Position numbers and translations under genes: made by a program. 64,000 bases of DNA, taken from Candidatus Komeilibacteria bacterium. Its GTDB lineage: Bacteria; Patescibacteriota; Patescibacteriia; UBA1558; UBA10009. Below are positions 3,823 to 56,362 of the stretch, in pieces; the first letter of the stretch is position 1, and each line of letters starts with the position of its first letter. The notes beneath the pieces are model-generated. The model did no database searches. It was not told where the DNA came from and saw only the letters and a program-made list of their open reading frames with translations. Location of the stretch: assembly GCA_026396575.1 (NCBI GenBank), contig JAPLWM010000007.1, positions 76,760-140,759 on the forward strand, read 5' to 3'.

Positions 3823-4074
3823 ATGGAAAAAATTATTGGTCTAAAGGAATTAAGGCAGAATATGCCGAGCTTTGCCCAAAAAGTGCAAAAAGGCCAGTCG
3901 TTTATCGTGGTTAAGCAATCCAAGCCTTTGTTTAAAATTACTCCTTTGACATATCTGGACAACGAGGTTGAGCAATCCCAGCAAAGCGCTTTTTTACAAA
4001 CCGGCGCGATTGACTCCCACCGCACTTTAAAACCGCTGTCTAAAGAAGAGCATGATTATTACATGGGCTTATGA
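3823..4074 (+). CDS. Type II antitoxin, Phd/YefM-like
   Basis: Small protein whose end overlaps the mazF-like start by 4 bp (ATGA). Its N-terminus resembles Phd/YefM. Confidence 0.6.
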   Translation: MEKIIGLKELRQNMPSFAQKVQKGQSFIVVKQSKPLFKITPLTYLDNEVEQSQQSAFLQTGAIDSHRTLKPLSKEEHDYYMGL

Positions 4075-4406
4075 AACAAGGAGAAATTTGGCTGGTTAAA
4101 TACGATCCCAGCGTTGGGCATGAATTTAAAAAAAATCGGCCCGCGGTAATTTTAAGTTCCACTGATATTTTAAACTATTCCGGCTTAGTCACGGTTATGG
4201 CCATTACCAGCAATCTTAGCGATTGCTTAAGCAATGATATAGAGGTGATTAAGGATAAAACAAATAATCTTTACGCCGATTCCGTTATTAAAGTTTATCA
4301 TCTTTCTTCATTTGATAAGCAAAGATTCATTAAAAAAATAGGAGGAGCGAATATAGCGGTTTTAGCTAAAATAAAGAGCTATCTTAAAAAACATTTTAAT
4401 ATTTAG
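4071..4406 (+). CDS. mazF: Type II toxin, MazF/PemK-family endoribonuclease
   Basis: GEIWLVKYDPSVGHEFKKNRPAVILSS matches the PemK/MazF signature. Confidence 0.8.
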   Translation: MKQGEIWLVKYDPSVGHEFKKNRPAVILSSTDILNYSGLVTVMAITSNLSDCLSNDIEVIKDKTNNLYADSVIKVYHLSSFDKQRFIKKIGGANIAVLAKIKSYLKKHFNI

Positions 4407-4445
4407 CCGGTATGATTAATAAACATAAAACCGGCTTTTTAAATT
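4406..4445 (+). terminator. Putative intrinsic terminator after the toxin-antitoxin pair
   Basis: gccgg...ccggc stem followed by ttttt. Confidence 0.35.
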
Positions 4446-4449
4446 TTTC

Positions 4450-5985
4450 ATGAATAAATTTGATTATCAATTATTAAAACCTCATAAAATAAAGCCAAAT
4501 AATCCTCGGTTTAAATGGCTGGAAAAAGATTATCCTGGCTTTTTGCATACCATTTTTATGCAGGGCATCCATGCCGGAGTTTATGAAATGAATAAGCTTT
4601 ACCCTTTTGGTTTTAAAGTCGGCTATTGTTTTAATAGCCAAAATAAGCAGGGTAATTTAGAATTGGATTGGCTTTGGGATTTAAGGGATTTAACTAGGGT
4701 CAGGAATATTTTTATCAGCCAGGCTAAGAAAAATTTAAATTTTTTCAATAAAATTTACCAGCACTGGCAAAAGGATTCCGCCTTTAATTTTAAAGTTTAT
4801 CAACAGGCGGAAAAAATCGATTTTTCTTCATTGGACGATAAAGATTTATATCATTGGTACGAAAAACTGTATTTAGCCAATATTAAGCAGGGCCGAACCG
4901 GTTATTTGGCCGATTGTTTTTTAACAGTCGGTTCGGAGGATTGGTTAAGTAATTTTATTAAAGGCCGTTTGCCTAAAAAATTTAATTTGCCAAAGACCAT
5001 TACTATTCTTACTGCTCCAACTATCGCTTCTTATACCAATAAAGAGGCGATTGATTTATTTTGGTTAACAAAATTGATTACAGGTAATTGGTCCGCCTTG
5101 AGCCAGTTTTTAAATTATCTTAAAAAGAATAAAAAGGCATGGTCGGCTTTAACTAAACACGCTGCCAAATATTATTGGATTGGGAATAATTATTTTGCCA
5201 GAATTTTAAAACCGGAGGATTTTGCTAAAAAATTATATCAACAGCTTTTAATAAATCAACAAAATCTTGCAGCGGTTTTATCTCTAAATTACAAAAATAA
5301 AAAGAAGCTGCTTAAAAAAATTAATGATCCTTGGTTAACCAAGGTAATTAAAATGTCTGAGTTAATGGGACATATGCAGGATTACCGTAAATGCGCTTTG
5401 GTAAGATTCAGCCATTTTTTGGCTATTATTTTTATTGAAATGGCTAAGCGGACTAATTTAAAATTAAATGATTATTATAATTTGGTTTTTCCGGAAGTTA
5501 AGGAAATATTTTTAAATAAAAAGATTAATCGGCAAAAAATAACAGCTAGAATTAAAGAGAATTTTACTTACGGCAATCCTAAAGGTTTTGTTGTTTACGA
5601 AGGCGATTATTTAAAAAAGTTTGTAAATAAAAAAGATTTCTTCCCCGATTTAAATAACTTTGTTAAAATAAGGGGGGTGTCGGCTTGCGCCGGCTTGGTA
5701 AAAGGCAGGGTTAAAATAGTTAAGGATGCCCATAAAATTTCCAGTTTAGGAAAAAATACGGTTTTGGTTACCAATAATACTACTCCGGAGTTTGTGCCTC
5801 TTATGAAGCAGGCGATAGCCATTGTTACTGAACAAGGCGGCATTACTTGCCACGCCGCTATTGTTTCGCGGGAATTGGGCGTTCCTTGCATTATCGGCAC
5901 CAAAATCGCCACTCAAGTATTTAAAGACGGCGACCTAGTTGAGGTTGACGCGAATAGGGGAATAGTTAGAAAACTAAAAAGCTGA
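4450..5985 (+). CDS. Protein with a C-terminal PEP-utilising-enzyme mobile (phosphohistidine swivel) domain; N-terminal region uncharacterised
   Basis: The C-terminus carries GGITCHAAIVSRELGVPCIIG, the phosphohistidine motif of PEP synthase, PPDK and rifampin phosphotransferase. Confidence 0.6.
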   Translation: MNKFDYQLLKPHKIKPNNPRFKWLEKDYPGFLHTIFMQGIHAGVYEMNKLYPFGFKVGYCFNSQNKQGNLELDWLWDLRDLTRVRNIFISQAKKNLNFFNKIYQHWQKDSAFNFKVYQQAEKIDFSSLDDKDLYHWYEKLYLANIKQGRTGYLADCFLTVGSEDWLSNFIKGRLPKKFNLPKTITILTAPTIASYTNKEAIDLFWLTKLITGNWSALSQFLNYLKKNKKAWSALTKHAAKYYWIGNNYFARILKPEDFAKKLYQQLLINQQNLAAVLSLNYKNKKKLLKKINDPWLTKVIKMSELMGHMQDYRKCALVRFSHFLAIIFIEMAKRTNLKLNDYYNLVFPEVKEIFLNKKINRQKITARIKENFTYGNPKGFVVYEGDYLKKFVNKKDFFPDLNNFVKIRGVSACAGLVKGRVKIVKDAHKISSLGKNTVLVTNNTTPEFVPLMKQAIAIVTEQGGITCHAAIVSRELGVPCIIGTKIATQVFKDGDLVEVDANRGIVRKLKS

Positions 5986-8585: not shown

Positions 8586-8661
8586 TGGAGCCAACGGTCG
8601 GATTTGAACCGACGACCTCTGCTTTACGAAAGCATTGCTCTACCAGCTGAGCTACGTTGGC
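8586..8661 (-). tRNA. tRNA-Thr (anticodon CGU), CCA encoded
   Basis: Folded by hand: 7-bp acceptor stem, GCTC/GAGC D-stem, anticodon loop TTCGTAA, T-loop TTCAAAT. Confidence 0.75.
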
Positions 8662-8669
8662 TAAAATAT

Positions 8670-8743
8670 TGGAGCGGATGACGGGAATCGAACCCGCGTT
8701 GCTTGCTTGGGAAGCAGGTGTACTACCACTGTACTACATCCGC
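8670..8743 (-). tRNA. tRNA-Gly (anticodon CCC), CCA encoded
   Basis: Folded by hand: acceptor GCGGATG/CATCCGC, D-stem GTAC/GTAC, anticodon loop TTCCCAA, 4-nt variable loop, T-loop TTCGATT, discriminator U. Confidence 0.75.
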
Positions 8744-11906: not shown

Positions 11907-12011
11907 AAAAAAAGGCCTTGCCTAATTATCATGTAATTTAAAATGTAGGGGCACAACATGTTGTGCCCCTACATCGTTTTACAATAATTATTACCAGGCA
12001 AGGCCTTTTTT
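11907..12011. terminator. Nested palindrome acting as a bidirectional terminator between ftsX and rpmA
   Basis: Outer arms are aaaaaaggccttgcc / ggcaaggcctttttt. They enclose a perfect 32-bp palindrome at 11943-11974 (atgtaggggcacaa catg ttgtgcccctacat) with T-runs on both strands. Confidence 0.6.
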
Positions 12012-22032: not shown

Positions 22033-22064
22033 ATGTAGGGGCACAAAATTTTGTGCCCCTACAT
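22033..22064. terminator. Perfect 32-bp palindrome between convergent rpsI and dus genes. It has the same 14-bp arms as the element at 11943-11974
   Basis: atgtaggggcacaa aatt ttgtgcccctacat, flanked by T-rich sequence on both strands. Confidence 0.55.
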
Positions 22065-52687: not shown

Positions 52688-53571
52688 AAATAGTGTTTTT
52701 TAAAGTATTGCTTTACCCGGCTCGGCTTAATAACGCCGAATTCGCAAATAAAACCGGTAATGGCTTTGGCCGGAACTTTGTCAAAGGCAAAATTGATTAT
52801 TTTATCGTTTTTAGGTTTATTCGGCCAAACTTCTTGGCTGGAACGAATTTCCAAAGGAATTTTGCCGCCAGGAGCGAATCTTAACAATTCCGCCACGATA
52901 TACAAAGGAATTTTACTACCCTGGGCGGCCAGGGAAATGCCAAAACTGCCGATTTTGTTGATAACAGAGCCATCGGGTAAGATAACATCGGCACCCAATA
53001 ATACAAGGTTTATTTTTATCTTATCGCCGGATTTATCGCTGATGGTGTAAGCGGCGGCCGAATCAACCAAGGTAGTTATGTTAATGCCGGCTTGGCTTAA
53101 CTTTTGCGCGGTAATCCTGCCTTGAAACAAAGGCCGGGTTTCGGTATTGTAAACTTTAAATTTTTTGCCGGATTGTTTAGCGGCTTTGAGCAATTTTTCC
53201 ACCGTGCCCGAGTGGCAGTGGGTAAAAATATTTTGTTTTGCTTTAATGATTTTTAAGCCGTTTTTAACGGTGGCCTGCTCCGCTTTAAGCAGCAGTTTTT
53301 CCAGGCCCTCAATTGATTTAATGAAAGTTTTTGCTTTTAACGGTTGTTTGGCCAGGTAATTGAGGAAGTTTTGGTTTAAGGGTTCGGTGGGCCGGGCTTG
53401 TTTTAATAGGCCGATGGCTTGCCTGATTTTTTTATTAAAGTTAGTCGGTGAAGCGTTTTTAAGCCCGGCAGCATATTTTTTTAAGCAATTTAAAGAAGCC
53501 GCGGCAATGGCTTTGGCTCCCTGGATTTTTAGATCTTTGATTTTTTTAGCGGTGATTTTTGGCAAATTCAT
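52675..53571 (-). CDS. Ribose-1,5-bisphosphate isomerase (eIF-2B alpha/beta/delta-like, e2b2 family). The likely start is ATG 53571; the track ORF begins at TTG 53577
   Basis: eIF-2B-like fold (LLGADVILPDGSVINKIGS). First gene of the operon. Confidence 0.75.
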   Translation of the reverse strand: MNLPKITAKKIKDLKIQGAKAIAAASLNCLKKYAAGLKNASPTNFNKKIRQAIGLLKQARPTEPLNQNFLNYLAKQPLKAKTFIKSIEGLEKLLLKAEQATVKNGLKIIKAKQNIFTHCHSGTVEKLLKAAKQSGKKFKVYNTETRPLFQGRITAQKLSQAGINITTLVDSAAAYTISDKSGDKIKINLVLLGADVILPDGSVINKIGSFGISLAAQGSKIPLYIVAELLRFAPGGKIPLEIRSSQEVWPNKPKNDKIINFAFDKVPAKAITGFICEFGVIKPSRVKQYFKKHYLWLK

Positions 53572-53577
53572 GGTCAA

Positions 53578-53615
53578 ATTATACCAATAATTGCCTTAAA
53601 ATACAAGAAAATCAG
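53578..53615 (-). promoter_or_regulatory. Promoter TTGTAT, 17-nt spacer, TATAAT, with an upstream conserved CTGATTTTC box. The motif recurs at 63589-63628
   Basis: The minus strand reads ctgattttcttgtattttaaggcaattattggtataat ttgacc ATG. The -10 lies 6 nt before the ATG. Confidence 0.45.
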
Positions 53616-53625
53616 AAAACAAAAA

Positions 53626-53650
53626 CACCGCCAATTAAGCGGTTTTTTTA
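53626..53650. terminator. Hairpin (accgcc caattaa ggcggt) with T-runs on both strands
   Basis: Downstream of the minus-strand STAS-like gene. It resembles the hairpin at 55202. Confidence 0.45.
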
Positions 53651-53772
53651 TATGCCTGCCTTCAGCTTATGTATTTAGCCGAATAGAGCTGACGCCCCAC
53701 AAGCACATTTAGAGTGTATAGCAGATTTAAAAATAAATCAAGGGGTGGGTGTGGATAATGGGTTTATTTAAA

Positions 53773-54126
53773 TTATTGGTCAAGAAGAGTTTTTGCGCTT
53801 AATATTTTAGGTTGAAATTTTGGTTCTGCATTAGACACGGCTCGGTTAGCACCTATTATTCTAAACATTAAGTTTACATTATTACTGGTATTGGTAAATT
53901 CAATCTCTTTTAATGGAAAGGTATTATTAAGCCGTTCTTTTAATAGTAATAATTCGTGGGCGGCAGACCTTGAGACAAACTCAACGCTGGAAAAATCTAA
54001 ATAAACAATAGATGATTTAGCTTGCGAAATATAGGGCTCAATAGTTTGAACAACATCACGAGAGCCTATAACATTAGTCAGTAAATCAATTATTTTTATA
54101 TTAGTTGGTATTGTATTATTTTTCAT
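53773..54126 (-). CDS. STAS-like (DUF4325-like) small protein, putative anti-sigma-antagonist-like partner
   Basis: IVYLDFSSVEFVSRSAAHELLLL has a STAS-like pattern. A GGGAGG Shine-Dalgarno lies 6 nt upstream. It is 38 nt downstream of the GHKL ATPase gene. Confidence 0.5.
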   Translation of the reverse strand: MKNNTIPTNIKIIDLLTNVIGSRDVVQTIEPYISQAKSSIVYLDFSSVEFVSRSAAHELLLLKERLNNTFPLKEIEFTNTSNNVNLMFRIIGANRAVSNAEPKFQPKILSAKTLLDQ

Positions 54127-54164
54127 AAGAACCTCCCATATTTATTATACTTGGAAATTGTACT

Positions 54165-55133
54165 TTATACAATGTATGGATAAATGTTAACAGGCTGTTC
54201 TGGTTGAGGTATGCGATAAGCTATAATTACGCCTTTCCAATGAAAATCAGCCCCCGTAAATAAAGTCTCCTCTTTTTTATTAGATATTAACATTGTTGAG
54301 CCGGAAATAATAACAAAATCGCCTCCTAAGCCCTCACAAGTCAACCTTTTTGAGGTTCTAACCCCATAACCTCTCTCATTACTTTTTTTAACAGAATGGC
54401 CTTTCATTACTTCTGCTATTGCATCTTCATCGGATAAATTTAATCCTTTTTCTTTTTTATATGACATAGCATAGCCTATGCCAGTATCAACTATACAGAC
54501 GTCAAGATATTTTTTCTTTGGATAAAACTGACTAAAAATAAAACCCATATCTTGTTCGCTGTGTTCAAATATGTTATTTGTTAGTTCTTCAATAGGATAA
54601 TAAATAGCGTTTTTAATACCTTCTTGAAAACTTAAACTTTTTAAAATCAGAGAAGCAAAGAGCGCCAAAAGCCTCCCTCTTATTTCAGGGGCATCTTTTT
54701 TAAGGACACTGATTGGAATAAATGTTTTGTTATCCTGCAGAACTTGTTCTAAAGGAGAAATCGAATCAACGCCCTTTGGAAACTGTATTTTTTGTAAATA
54801 TGATAAAGTCTGTTCATTTTCAACCGTTTTGTAAGCGCTACCCGTTAGTTGCATATAGGCAACCAAAGGTAAAATTGATAAAGGAGAACACCAATCTAAT
54901 TGAGTAAGATTAAAAGATAGTTGCTCACCAAACTTAACACCCTTAAAGATTCTATAAAAAGAAGCTAATTGATGAATAATAGCATCCCCCTTAGGTTTAT
55001 TTACTATAATTTCTTTCATAAAGCTATTATAGCAAGAAATTAAAAAACCCGCACACTCCTTTAGACCTAAAGGCCTAGGGGAGGCACAGGCGACTTCATT
55101 TAGAAGAATACTTGAAAATCTATAAAAAGTCAA
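54165..55133 (-). CDS. GHKL-superfamily ATPase (RsbW/histidine-kinase-like HATPase fold) with an uncharacterised N-terminal region. The start may be the internal Met at 55019
   Basis: N-box EELTNNIFEH, G1 box VDTGIGY and G2 box ERGYGVRTSKRL, in Bergerat-fold order. Confidence 0.5.
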   Translation of the reverse strand: MTFYRFSSILLNEVACASPRPLGLKECAGFLISCYNSFMKEIIVNKPKGDAIIHQLASFYRIFKGVKFGEQLSFNLTQLDWCSPLSILPLVAYMQLTGSAYKTVENEQTLSYLQKIQFPKGVDSISPLEQVLQDNKTFIPISVLKKDAPEIRGRLLALFASLILKSLSFQEGIKNAIYYPIEELTNNIFEHSEQDMGFIFSQFYPKKKYLDVCIVDTGIGYAMSYKKEKGLNLSDEDAIAEVMKGHSVKKSNERGYGVRTSKRLTCEGLGGDFVIISGSTMLISNKKEETLFTGADFHWKGVIIAYRIPQPEQPVNIYPYIV

Positions 55134-55201
55134 CCTCTTGTGGAAAACTCCCTATTTTCCATTTTTACATTTTTTTAAATTAAAATATCGGCAAACAAAA
55201 A

Positions 55202-55229
55202 CAGCCCGCCAATTCGGCGGGCTGTTTTT
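55202..55229. terminator. 9-bp GC-rich hairpin plus T-run, terminator of the minus-strand surface-protein operon
   Basis: cagcccgcc aattc ggcgggctg ttttt. Confidence 0.55.
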
Positions 55230-55252
55230 AACTTATTTAAGGTAATAGTAAT

Positions 55253-56362
55253 TTAATAGCTATTTACTACCGCATCATTGACATCGTAAATTTTCTGGCC
55301 CCGATACTTGGCTAATTCGGCTAAACTGGTAATGTGCTGTTTTTGGCCGTTTACCAGCACATAGATTTTTTTATCGCTGCCGCGCAATAAAGCGCCGTTG
55401 GCATAAGTTTTAACGCCTAGAACCGCGCTTGGGGCGCTGGATTGATATTTCTTGATTGCCGCGGCGGTAATTGAACCGAAGTAGTTGGTTGGTTTTAAGT
55501 TCTTTTGGAAGAAGCCCTGTTTTTGCAATTCTGTTTGCAGCGCCCGGACTTGTTCATTTTTATCGCCGAATTTAACAGCGCTGATTAAATTATCAAGCGC
55601 ATTGATTTTAACGCCTAAAACCGCTTGCCCAGCAACAGTTTGGCCGTAAGAAGCAATAACATCATCACTTACATTAAGAATTGCTTTGCCGGCGTATTTA
55701 GCAAGTTCACTTAAGCTAGTGATGTGTTTTAACTGGCCACTTTCAACAACATAAATCTTTTTATCTGATCCGCGAAGCAATGCGCCGTCAGCGTAAAGTT
55801 TAACGCCTAAGACCGCTTGAGCTGGAGTAGTAACAACGGGAGCAGTTACTATTGGAGTAATTGGAGTATTAGTTGTTGGGACAGCGTAAAATCCGCCACC
55901 GCCGCCGCCACTTACTGGGGCCGGAGCAGGCGCAGGCGTTGAGGGAGTTGGTGTAGGAGCAGGTGCTGGGGTAGTGGCAGATCCAGGTACGGTCAGATTG
56001 AGCTGATTAGAAGCGCCATTGGTAAATATCGCTGTTTCGTTTGCTTTGATGCCGGAAACGTAAAATTCAATTGTTTTGCCTGTATTTGTGTTTTGATTAT
56101 CGGTAACGAAAAGCAAATCGGGGTTATAACCATAATTTCCACTCGCCGTTACCGAACTACCGACCACGACACCGTCAATTTTTGCTTCAACAGATAATCC
56201 ATTAGGAGTCGTGCCGCTCGCAAAATGCACGGTGCCGAAAAACTGGTGCGGTATTCCAGGATTTTGAGCAAATGCAAAAGCAGGAACCAAAAAGCCCAGA
56301 AGCGCTGTTATTGTAATTGTTTTTAGAAATACTGTTTTCATATTCATTTTCGTTGCCGTCAA
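55253..56362 (-). CDS. Secreted protein with a Thr/Pro-rich linker, a Gly6 stretch, and three ~55-60-aa internal repeats (possible cell-wall-binding repeats)
   Basis: Signal peptide, then ATTPAPAPTPTPSTPAPAPAP, then repeats of the AVLGVKxYAxGALLRGSDKKIYVV type. It is 4 nt downstream of the giant gene. Confidence 0.55.
   Translation of the reverse strand: MTATKMNMKTVFLKTITITALLGFLVPAFAFAQNPGIPHQFFGTVHFASGTTPNGLSVEAKIDGVVVGSSVTASGNYGYNPDLLFVTDNQNTNTGKTIEFYVSGIKANETAIFTNGASNQLNLTVPGSATTPAPAPTPTPSTPAPAPAPVSGGGGGGFYAVPTTNTPITPIVTAPVVTTPAQAVLGVKLYADGALLRGSDKKIYVVESGQLKHITSLSELAKYAGKAILNVSDDVIASYGQTVAGQAVLGVKINALDNLISAVKFGDKNEQVRALQTELQKQGFFQKNLKPTNYFGSITAAAIKKYQSSAPSAVLGVKTYANGALLRGSDKKIYVLVNGQKQHITSLAELAKYRGQKIYDVNDAVVNSY

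Follow-up and report, generated by a model that had tools for sequence, protein, structure and literature searches.

A probable kinase–STAS phospho-switch of the CapK/VapK type in an AT-rich islet of a Komeilibacteria genome

A 64,000-nucleotide stretch of contig JAPLWM010000007.1 from Candidatus Komeilibacteria (GenBank assembly GCA_026396575.1), hereafter the window, contains an AT-rich islet with two adjacent genes on the minus strand. The first gene encodes a protein sequentially composed of a STAS-like domain, a helical linker, and a GHKL (Bergerat-fold) domain. The second gene encodes a small protein of the STAS/DUF4325 type. The two products are identical (100% each) to the NCBI proteins NTZ18_02030 and NTZ18_02025. 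The islet is flanked on one side by e2b2, RuBisCO, and AMP phosphorylase genes and on the other by genes for a PG_binding_1 protein and a 1536-residue surface protein, and an earlier note made from the sequence alone had already named a RuBisCO operon and surface-protein genes there. On balance, we favor the reading that the islet is a phospho-switch of the CapK/VapK–CapS/VapS type, composed of two genes, complete in itself, and gained by horizontal transfer. Its features are collected in Table 1.

The two minus-strand open reading frames (ORFs) listed in the earlier note are both present, and the start of the larger one is revised. Its maximal form, obtained by ORF calling, spans 54165-55133, begins with a TTG codon at 55133, and encodes 322 residues. 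The start is most likely the ATG at 55019, because the NCBI model contains 284 residues and about 100 homologs, all of 276–302 residues, align from the methionine at this position. The small gene possesses its own Shine-Dalgarno sequence, GGGAGG, as previously noticed. The window ORF check found no ORF between the small gene and the downstream terminator.

Table 1. Features of the islet (window coordinates)
Feature	Position	Strand	Basis
Kinase gene, 284 residues plus stop, VapK/CapK-like STAS-GHKL protein	54165..55019	-	Start from NCBI and homologs; AlphaFold2; hhalign
N-terminal STAS-like domain and helical linker, residues 1 to ~125	54645..55019	-	AlphaFold2, hhalign, conservation
GHKL (Bergerat-fold) ATPase/kinase domain	54168..54644	-	Motifs, Pfam on the family, Foldseek
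Small-gene Shine-Dalgarno sequence, GGGAGG, 5 nucleotides 5' of the ATG	54132..54137	-	Sequence reading
STAS/DUF4325 partner gene, 117 residues plus stop	53773..54126	-	Family profile matches, AlphaFold2, Foldseek
Putative extended -10 element TGCTATAAT, ending 6 nucleotides before the kinase ATG	55026..55034	-	Read by eye, inference only
Bidirectional intrinsic-terminator hairpin, 14-bp stem including A/T runs, 5-nucleotide loop	55197..55229	.	Terminator scan
Bidirectional terminator hairpin, ACCGC-CAATTAA-GCGGT, flanked by runs of A and T	53627..53643	.	Terminator scan

The large protein carries the N, G1, and G2 boxes of the Bergerat fold that the earlier note had recognized. The motifs ELTNNIFEH, VDTGIGY, and ERGYGVRTSKRL fall on columns that are invariant among 229 homologs. 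The N box is composed of E145-N149-H153, the G1 box of D178xG180xG182, and the G2 box of R216-G217-x-G219-x-x-T222. E145, N149, H153, D178, G180, G217, and G219 are invariant in the 229 full-length homologs. In addition, a basic patch, YP-x-K169, has lysine in 78% of homologs. Pfam HATPase_c is matched by 21 of 26 kinase homologs and HATPase_c_2 by 9 of 26. By these sequence matches, the GHKL assignment is secure at the level of the family, not from the window protein alone.

The AlphaFold2 model of the kinase is of high quality, with a predicted local distance difference test (pLDDT) score of 90.4 and a predicted template modeling (pTM) score of 0.90. Residues 1-107 are built from alternating strands and helices and are followed by a helical linker and the Bergerat-fold domain. 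A Foldseek search with the model retrieved only GHKL proteins, namely Hsp90 and GyrB in the PDB and phage HATPase proteins in BFVD. The PDB matches are weak, with a template modeling (TM) score of ~0.2, and generic to GHKL proteins. A search of PDB sequences with the kinase-family profile returned nothing useful.

The small protein is predicted by AlphaFold2 (pLDDT 86.9) to adopt a STAS fold with one short C-terminal helix. Its top 50 Foldseek matches in the PDB are mostly STAS proteins, including TM1442, MlaB, RsbS, SpoIIAA, and SLC26 STAS domains. At E<0.01, Pfam STAS is matched by 41 of the 65 homologs and DUF4325 by 16. Together, the fold and the family matches bear out the STAS-like pattern seen earlier in this gene. 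The earlier note had looked to HATPase and DUF4325/STAS hidden Markov model (HMM) matches as a check: the two families match, HATPase_c and STAS in the proportions given above, and the window proteins themselves remain below threshold.

The small-protein family has the signature LDFxxVxF(I/V)-S52-R53-S54-AAHELL. Position 52 is serine or threonine in all 65 homologs, and S54 is invariant. Both residues lie at the N-terminus of helix 2, which starts at residue 53 in the model. R23 is also invariant. The small protein has no helix-turn-helix (HTH) match in Pfam.

Pairs of a GHKL kinase and a STAS substrate were characterized in 2026 with the description of CapK-CapS and VapKSC (Chambers et al., EMBO J 2026; PMC13373217), so the statement in the earlier note that HATPase–DUF4325 pairs are uncharacterized is out of date. 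In CapK/CapS and VapK/VapS, the pair links a DNA-damage or single-stranded DNA (ssDNA) signal with the transcription of immune operons or with the freeing of a PIN toxin (PMC13373217). CapK is an HTH-STAS-GHKL kinase activated by ssDNA. It phosphorylates S54 of CapS, a repressor composed of a STAS domain and a winged HTH (wHTH), and CBASS, Bub, or Thoeris operons are de-repressed (PMC13373217). VapK is a STAS-GHKL protein with F54 in a predicted ssDNA site. It phosphorylates S48 of VapS, which consists of a STAS domain with a short tail, and the PIN toxin VapC is released; VapKSC gave ~2 logs of protection against one phage (PMC13373217). W68 of CapK and F54 of VapK are the ssDNA-stacking residues, and CapK contains a basic patch formed by K237 and K239 (PMC13373217). 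The phospho-serine of SpoIIAA, CapS (S54), and VapS (S48) is located at the start of helix 2 (PMC13373217).

The best STAS match of the small-family profile among PDB sequences is 9z7o_A, 'Escherichia VapS' (E=0.069), in which the serine of a FASPFF motif aligns with S52; we infer that this serine is S48 of the VapS paper. A search with a fragment of 9z7o_A led to a plasmid of Deinococcus gobiensis with a vapKSC-like operon, in which a gene for an ATP-binding protein is joined by genes for a DUF4325 protein (53.9 bits) and a PIN protein. The kinase of this operon aligns with the window kinase family over 249 columns covering both domains (hhalign 97.35%, E=1.6e-11). W53 of the Deinococcus kinase is aligned to W43 of the window kinase, a position occupied in 220 of 229 homologs by an aromatic residue, namely W, F, or Y. 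K169 is at +20 from the N-box asparagine, compared with +19 and +21 from N218 for K237 and K239 of CapK.

The region preceding the GHKL domain was previously described as an uncharacterized N-terminal region of ~150 residues. It is corrected to ~125 residues and is a STAS-like domain, judged mainly by the Deinococcus VapK-like homolog, whose N-domain passes the Pfam STAS threshold (23.3 bits) in the region aligned to the window kinase. A deeper profile of the N-domain also aligns with the STAS core of the small-protein family (hhalign 63%, E=6.9e-5); the alignment of the whole kinase against the STAS alignment is insignificant (hhalign 1.6%). The near-invariant P46 takes the place of the SRS motif of the partner in the alignment of the N-domain with the small family. 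Because of the full-length homology to a VapK-like kinase, the aromatic W43, K169, and the STAS match of the N-domain, the large protein would be a VapK/CapK-family STAS-GHKL kinase and the small protein its STAS substrate.

The pair most closely resembles VapK and VapS. The window kinase has the same STAS-GHKL architecture as VapK and no HTH. The partner is similar to VapS in size (~116-117 residues) and layout, with a STAS domain, a short C-terminal tail, and a conserved Ser/Thr at helix 2, and the gene order, kinase followed by STAS, is also the same. However, no VapC/PIN gene is adjacent in the window or detected in 75 related loci, and the pair is not VapKSC. The small family has its own SRS-AAHELL signature and R23, and its similarity to VapS is marginal. 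The window clade is also centered on bacteria of the candidate phyla radiation (CPR) and DPANN archaea.

In CapK-CapS, likewise, the kinase is a GHKL protein that contains an internal STAS domain, and the separate STAS partner has a conserved serine at helix 2; the two genes are adjacent, with the kinase first. In contrast to CapK, the window kinase contains no N-terminal HTH and begins at β-strand 1 of the STAS-like domain. The 117-residue partner lacks a wHTH and is therefore not a CapS-type repressor. No immune operon lies downstream; a terminator is followed by the e2b2-RuBisCO-AMP phosphorylase operon. The pair is thus not CapKS. It is an effector-less relative of CapKS and VapKSC, a sister group that keeps the sensor–substrate pair without a recognizable output. 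A role of the pair in regulating the RuBisCO operon downstream is rejected, since a DNA-binding domain is missing from the partner, a terminator separates the two, and the downstream genes are not conserved across loci.

Several observations weigh against reading the pair as a CapK/VapK-type defense switch. The window proteins score below the Pfam thresholds, the kinase with E=0.11 for HATPase_c_2, and the small protein with 16.1 bits for DUF4325 (PF14213; cut-off 23) and 14.8 bits for STAS (PF01740; cut-off 22.6). The similarity of the small family to VapS is weak, both for 9z7o_A and for the Deinococcus VapS-like protein (hhalign 3.8%). The equivalence of W43 and VapK F54 comes from the alignment to the VapK-like protein and from residue numbering, not from the Escherichia sequence, and is provisional. 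Biochemical proof of ssDNA activation is available for CapK only (PMC13373217). No system-level match was obtained with PADLOC v2.0.0 for the window proteins or their family. Most of the 121 genes that lie no more than two positions from the pair are housekeeping genes. The Pfam families with matches in at least two of them do not include PIN (PF01850), and phmmer searches with two PIN queries gave nothing significant in the 75 loci or the window.

With the domain architecture, the conservation of catalytic motifs, the obligate gene pairing, the mobility, and the homology to a VapK-like kinase established here, a mechanism can be proposed by homology with CapK and VapK. A danger signal in the form of nucleic acid, most likely ssDNA, would activate the kinase. 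The DNA would be bound in a groove between the STAS-like and GHKL domains and stacked on W43, with K169 nearby. The active kinase would then phosphorylate the serine of the partner at the N-terminus of helix 2, with S52 favored by the VapS alignment and S54 as the alternative. Phosphorylation of S52 or S54 is a likely switch by analogy, since the phospho-serine of SpoIIAA, CapS, and VapS occupies the same position. The modification would alter what the STAS protein binds. Because the partner lacks a wHTH and no PIN/VapC toxin or immune operon adjoins, the controlled target would not be encoded in cis. It would be either supplied in trans, which is favored, or the kinase itself. From the homology to CapK and VapK, the chances that ssDNA or DNA damage is the activating signal are about even, and a role in defense or stress may equally well be right or wrong. 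A target of the phosphorylated STAS protein, once found, would extend the modular-sensor idea to a new output class and would offer a first entry to inducible stress or defense signaling in CPR and DPANN organisms. To our knowledge, very few defense systems have been cataloged for these organisms.

The pair is a conserved unit. One genome per species was scanned, and 75 loci were collected; gene calling in these loci ignored ORFs of fewer than 70 residues. Patescibacteria/CPR account for most of the loci; the rest come from DPANN archaea (Woese-, Pace-, and Nanoarchaeota), Bacteroidales, Latescibacter, and a handful of other groups. A homolog of the small gene lies directly downstream of the kinase gene in ~64 of the 75. 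No third gene is conserved across them, the next largest protein cluster being present in 10 of 75. Between the pair and its flanking genes there are usually over 100 nucleotides. In only 37 of 60 loci does the downstream gene share the orientation of the pair, and this gene is unrelated from locus to locus.

The order of the genes is inverted in Thermococcus sp. 101 C5 (L079 9680-11571), where the STAS gene comes first and the arginine of the SRS motif is replaced by histidine. A glycosyltransferase/polysaccharide island surrounds this pair, and a gene with a weak PIN domain lies three genes downstream of the kinase.

An architecture of VapK plus VapS minus VapC could also be that of a decaying vapKSC or capKS remnant, deprived of its toxin or regulated operon and no longer functional. 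The Thermococcus PIN gene would fit such a history. A remnant is quite improbable, however, as the two-gene form is kept in ~64 loci of many phyla with full-length proteins and intact catalytic and acceptor residues, and the same form travels as phage cargo. In addition, 1.84 billion cluster representatives were searched with a profile, which retrieved 5609 relatives at E<=0.001, of which 2006 reach E<=1e-10, and the best 150 of the 5609 are mostly of 275-310 residues.

The kinase and its partner also occur in fused forms. In plasmid pANSO36B of Nostoc cf. commune (L096 1914-3158), the two are joined in a single 414-residue chain that matches HATPase_c and DUF4325 (50.8 bits). Such a Rosetta-stone fusion speaks for a physical interaction of kinase and partner. 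Elsewhere, the kinase is fused to the C-terminus of superfamily 2 (SF2) helicases of 1266-1376 residues, and the STAS partner gene is still present downstream. The fusion at locus L090 (6295-10795; also at L091) is a 1376-residue protein with DEAD and Helicase_C domains. It matches the PADLOC model 'poss. alt. Cas3' (1.5e-162) as well as the DpdF and PsyrT models, and is followed by a 117-residue STAS partner (hhalign 97.8%). Through such a fusion, a motor that handles ssDNA would be joined to the putative ssDNA-sensing kinase. The helicase-fused and single-chain forms are natural experiments for the mechanism.

The kinase also matches the PADLOC model for DrmA (PDLC02567) at positions 62-245 of 1750 (E=1.9e-8). 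Of 26 kinase-family members, 25 match the N-terminal part of this model with their GHKL domain and a portion of the STAS-like domain. An N-terminal copy of the kinase module may therefore be present in some DrmA-type proteins (DISARM helicases).

The helicase fusions, along with the presence of Hsp90 and GyrB rather than histidine kinases at the top of the PDB matches, bring up another function for the GHKL domain. It could act as an ATP-driven clamp or chaperone on nucleic acid, in the manner of MORC, Hsp90, or GyrB, with the STAS protein as a regulator of the nucleotide state. We regard this as the least probable of the alternatives, and very improbable overall. The structural matches in question are weak, as noted above, the homology to the VapK-like kinase extends over the full length, and the partner has a conserved Ser/Thr acceptor. 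The G2 box, ERGYGxxT, also resembles that of SpoIIAB-type kinases.

The resemblance to SpoIIAB-SpoIIAA and RsbW-RsbV is clear in both proteins. The kinase has the N, G1, and G2 boxes of a Bergerat serine kinase, the STAS partner has a conserved serine at helix 2, and TM1442, RsbS, and SpoIIAA are among the structural matches of the small protein. Some sources name the homologs 'anti-sigma regulatory factor' or 'anti-anti-sigma factor'. An ordinary anti-sigma/anti-anti-sigma switch acting on a sigma factor encoded elsewhere would account for these features. The earlier note had pointed to an RsbW/RsbV-like pair with neither sigma factor nor phosphatase nearby, and this is borne out: no sigma factor or PP2C phosphatase gene, nor any third gene, is conserved in the neighborhoods of the 75 loci. 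The module is also found in phages and in archaea, including Thermococcus, the archaeal provirus psiM100, and Woese-, Pace-, and Nanoarchaeota. Archaea have no sigma factors. Furthermore, RsbW and SpoIIAB kinases are compact single-domain proteins without a STAS-like domain, which the window kinase has in addition. The window pair is a mobile, AT-rich accessory module of foreign composition. The pair is no classical sigma-factor partner switch, and a sigma factor elsewhere in the genome is a highly unlikely target.

The composition of the islet differs from that of its surroundings, in agreement with the lower G+C (GC) content and different codon usage noted earlier. GC content is 0.30-0.34 over ~53600-55200, compared with 0.42-0.50 in the flanks. 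The GC content at third codon positions (GC3) is 0.22 and 0.245 for the two genes, more than three standard deviations below the window mean of 0.475 (standard deviation 0.073). These are the lowest GC3 values of 54 window ORFs, a set of ORFs of at least 100 residues kept by a greedy ORF caller. The same tendency is observed across the family. The module is lower in GC content than its flanks in 51 of 58 loci, with a mean difference of -4.5 points (Wilcoxon p=1.5e-9).

Both hairpins flanking the islet exist and score as bidirectional terminators in the terminator scan. The upstream hairpin ends the PG_binding_1 gene, whose stop codon is at 55253, and forms the islet's upstream boundary. The downstream hairpin ends the cassette, ~130 nucleotides past the stop codon of the small gene and 56 nucleotides upstream of the e2b2 start codon. 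The earlier note had regarded the two as related; their similarity is generic. The 9-mer CCGCCAATT common to both has four copies in the window compared with 2.3 expected, and 20 of 100 shuffles reach four. The hairpins match each other at 26 of 37 positions, and an unrelated terminator at 13886 matches equally well. Insertion scars are therefore ruled out as an explanation for the hairpins. No direct repeats were found around the islet other than the terminators themselves, and no tRNA gene lies within ~45 kb, the sole two in the window being at 8586-8743. An Rfam scan of the islet gave only sub-threshold matches, due to the terminator.

Comparison of e2b2 loci is consistent with a lineage-specific gain of the module and is not proof of an empty site. 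The module is present on all 11 contigs that carry an identical e2b2 protein, and in none of the 80 closest other e2b2 loci in metagenomes, whose e2b2 proteins are at most 57% identical.

The pair is found in mobile elements of bacteria and archaea, temperate phages and plasmids among them. In the Methanothermobacter prophage psiM100 (L094 3923-6544), the kinase (ORFB) and ORFC lie inside an annotated 'inserted fragment IFa'. ORFC matches DUF4325 (29.4 bits) and the small family (hhalign 99.1%). In Bacteroides phage BF1-TP2, gp43 is annotated as 'ATP-binding protein' and gp42 as 'DUF4325'. Homologs such as ORFC and the Nostoc fusion pass the DUF4325 threshold that the window protein does not reach, and the 65 homologs of the latter favor STAS over DUF4325. 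The ORF table of Francisella phage KIRK lists a 293-residue hypothetical protein and then a 112-residue DUF4325 protein, between the CI repressor and the integrase (PMC7924643). A scan of IMG/VR yielded only one distant viral locus.

The psiM100 fragment IFa also holds most of ORFD, a 492-residue protein with no Pfam match, whose 3' end extends past the annotated end of IFa. The record notes that ORFB and ORFC are similar to the chromosomal MTH315 and MTH316. Sphingobacterium sp. ML3W (L092/L093, ~5.08-5.10 Mb) has two loci ~10 kb apart, each with an identical 311-residue kinase followed by a 121-residue gene. The 121-residue partner is a member of the STAS family (hhalign 98.4%), confirmed in one copy. 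The island around them contains Zeta-toxin, Fic/DUF4172, DCD-like, and DUF6036 genes.

Because of the GC3 values and codon usage, the low GC content of the module across loci, and the location of the pair inside IFa, the kinase–substrate pair was very likely acquired horizontally. Of the proposal that the islet was inserted as a cassette, horizontal acquisition thus stands, and the argument from the hairpins fails.

The neighborhoods give less information on function. Among the 121 neighboring genes, AbiEii, Fic, DUF3800, and NYN are found twice each, and a restriction endonuclease, a reverse transcriptase, Cas1, and an MzaA-like protein once each. The defense-island signal around the pair is weak, since the neighbors are mostly housekeeping genes with few defense genes among them. 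A conflict or defense module, as the earlier note had suggested, is plausible by homology to CapKS and VapKSC, and the enrichment in defense islands that it had envisaged is weak.

The absence of any other encoded effector, the mobility of the module on phages and plasmids, and the toxin-antitoxin genes in some neighborhoods are also in line with an abortive-infection or addiction pair. The GHKL protein, once freed, would be a toxin that phosphorylates essential host proteins or burns ATP, and the STAS protein would be its decoy or inhibitor. DUF4325/STAS proteins serve as antitoxins to PIN toxins in VapKSC, and the PIN.4 group was reported as 'transcriptionally coupled to DUF4325' (PMC5499597). 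However, the kinase is a sensor and not a toxin in the characterized relatives. The order of the genes, with a seemingly leaderless kinase gene first and a strong Shine-Dalgarno sequence before the STAS gene, would fit an excess of antitoxin and is not diagnostic. A kinase toxin is unlikely, although it has more in its favor than the other alternatives.

A bolder version of the phospho-switch is that the two-gene form is a complete, host-independent immune or stress switch, made of an ssDNA-sensing kinase and a STAS partner, with no dedicated toxin or DNA-binding domain. The kinase might act on cellular targets once the decoy is phosphorylated, or the STAS protein might gate a universal host factor. 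Because the module occurs in CPR bacteria, DPANN archaea, Thermococcus, methanogen proviruses, and Bacteroides phages, the target would be common to bacteria and archaea. This version is speculative and rather unlikely to be right as a whole. If true, it would represent a minimal phospho-relay defense typical of ultra-small symbionts.

The upstream region of the kinase gene has no Shine-Dalgarno sequence on reading of the minus strand. The putative -10 element TGCTATAAT was read directly from this strand and is not listed by the consensus promoter scan. Because the element ends so close to the ATG and no Shine-Dalgarno sequence is present, the kinase mRNA may be leaderless. The e2b2 gene is arranged likewise, with TATAAT at 53583-53578 (-), 6 nucleotides before the ATG at 53571, and no Shine-Dalgarno sequence (stretch 53578-53606). 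The two genes suggest the use of leaderless mRNAs in this Komeilibacteria CPR genome.

Two further features of the window lie at a distance from the islet. A second AT-rich islet is located at 4071-5985 on the plus strand, with a GC content of ~0.33 and GC3 values of 0.32-0.34, compared with the window mean of 0.475. It encodes a 111-residue toxin of the PemK/MazF family (Pfam E=6.4e-23), followed by a 511-residue protein with a C-terminal PEP-utilizers mobile domain. In addition, a perfect palindrome, ATGTAGGGGCAC-N8-GTGCCCCTACAT, with 12-bp stems is present in two copies 10 kb apart, at 11943-11974 and 22033-22064, and could be a repeated operator or an element resembling repetitive extragenic palindromic (REP) sequences.

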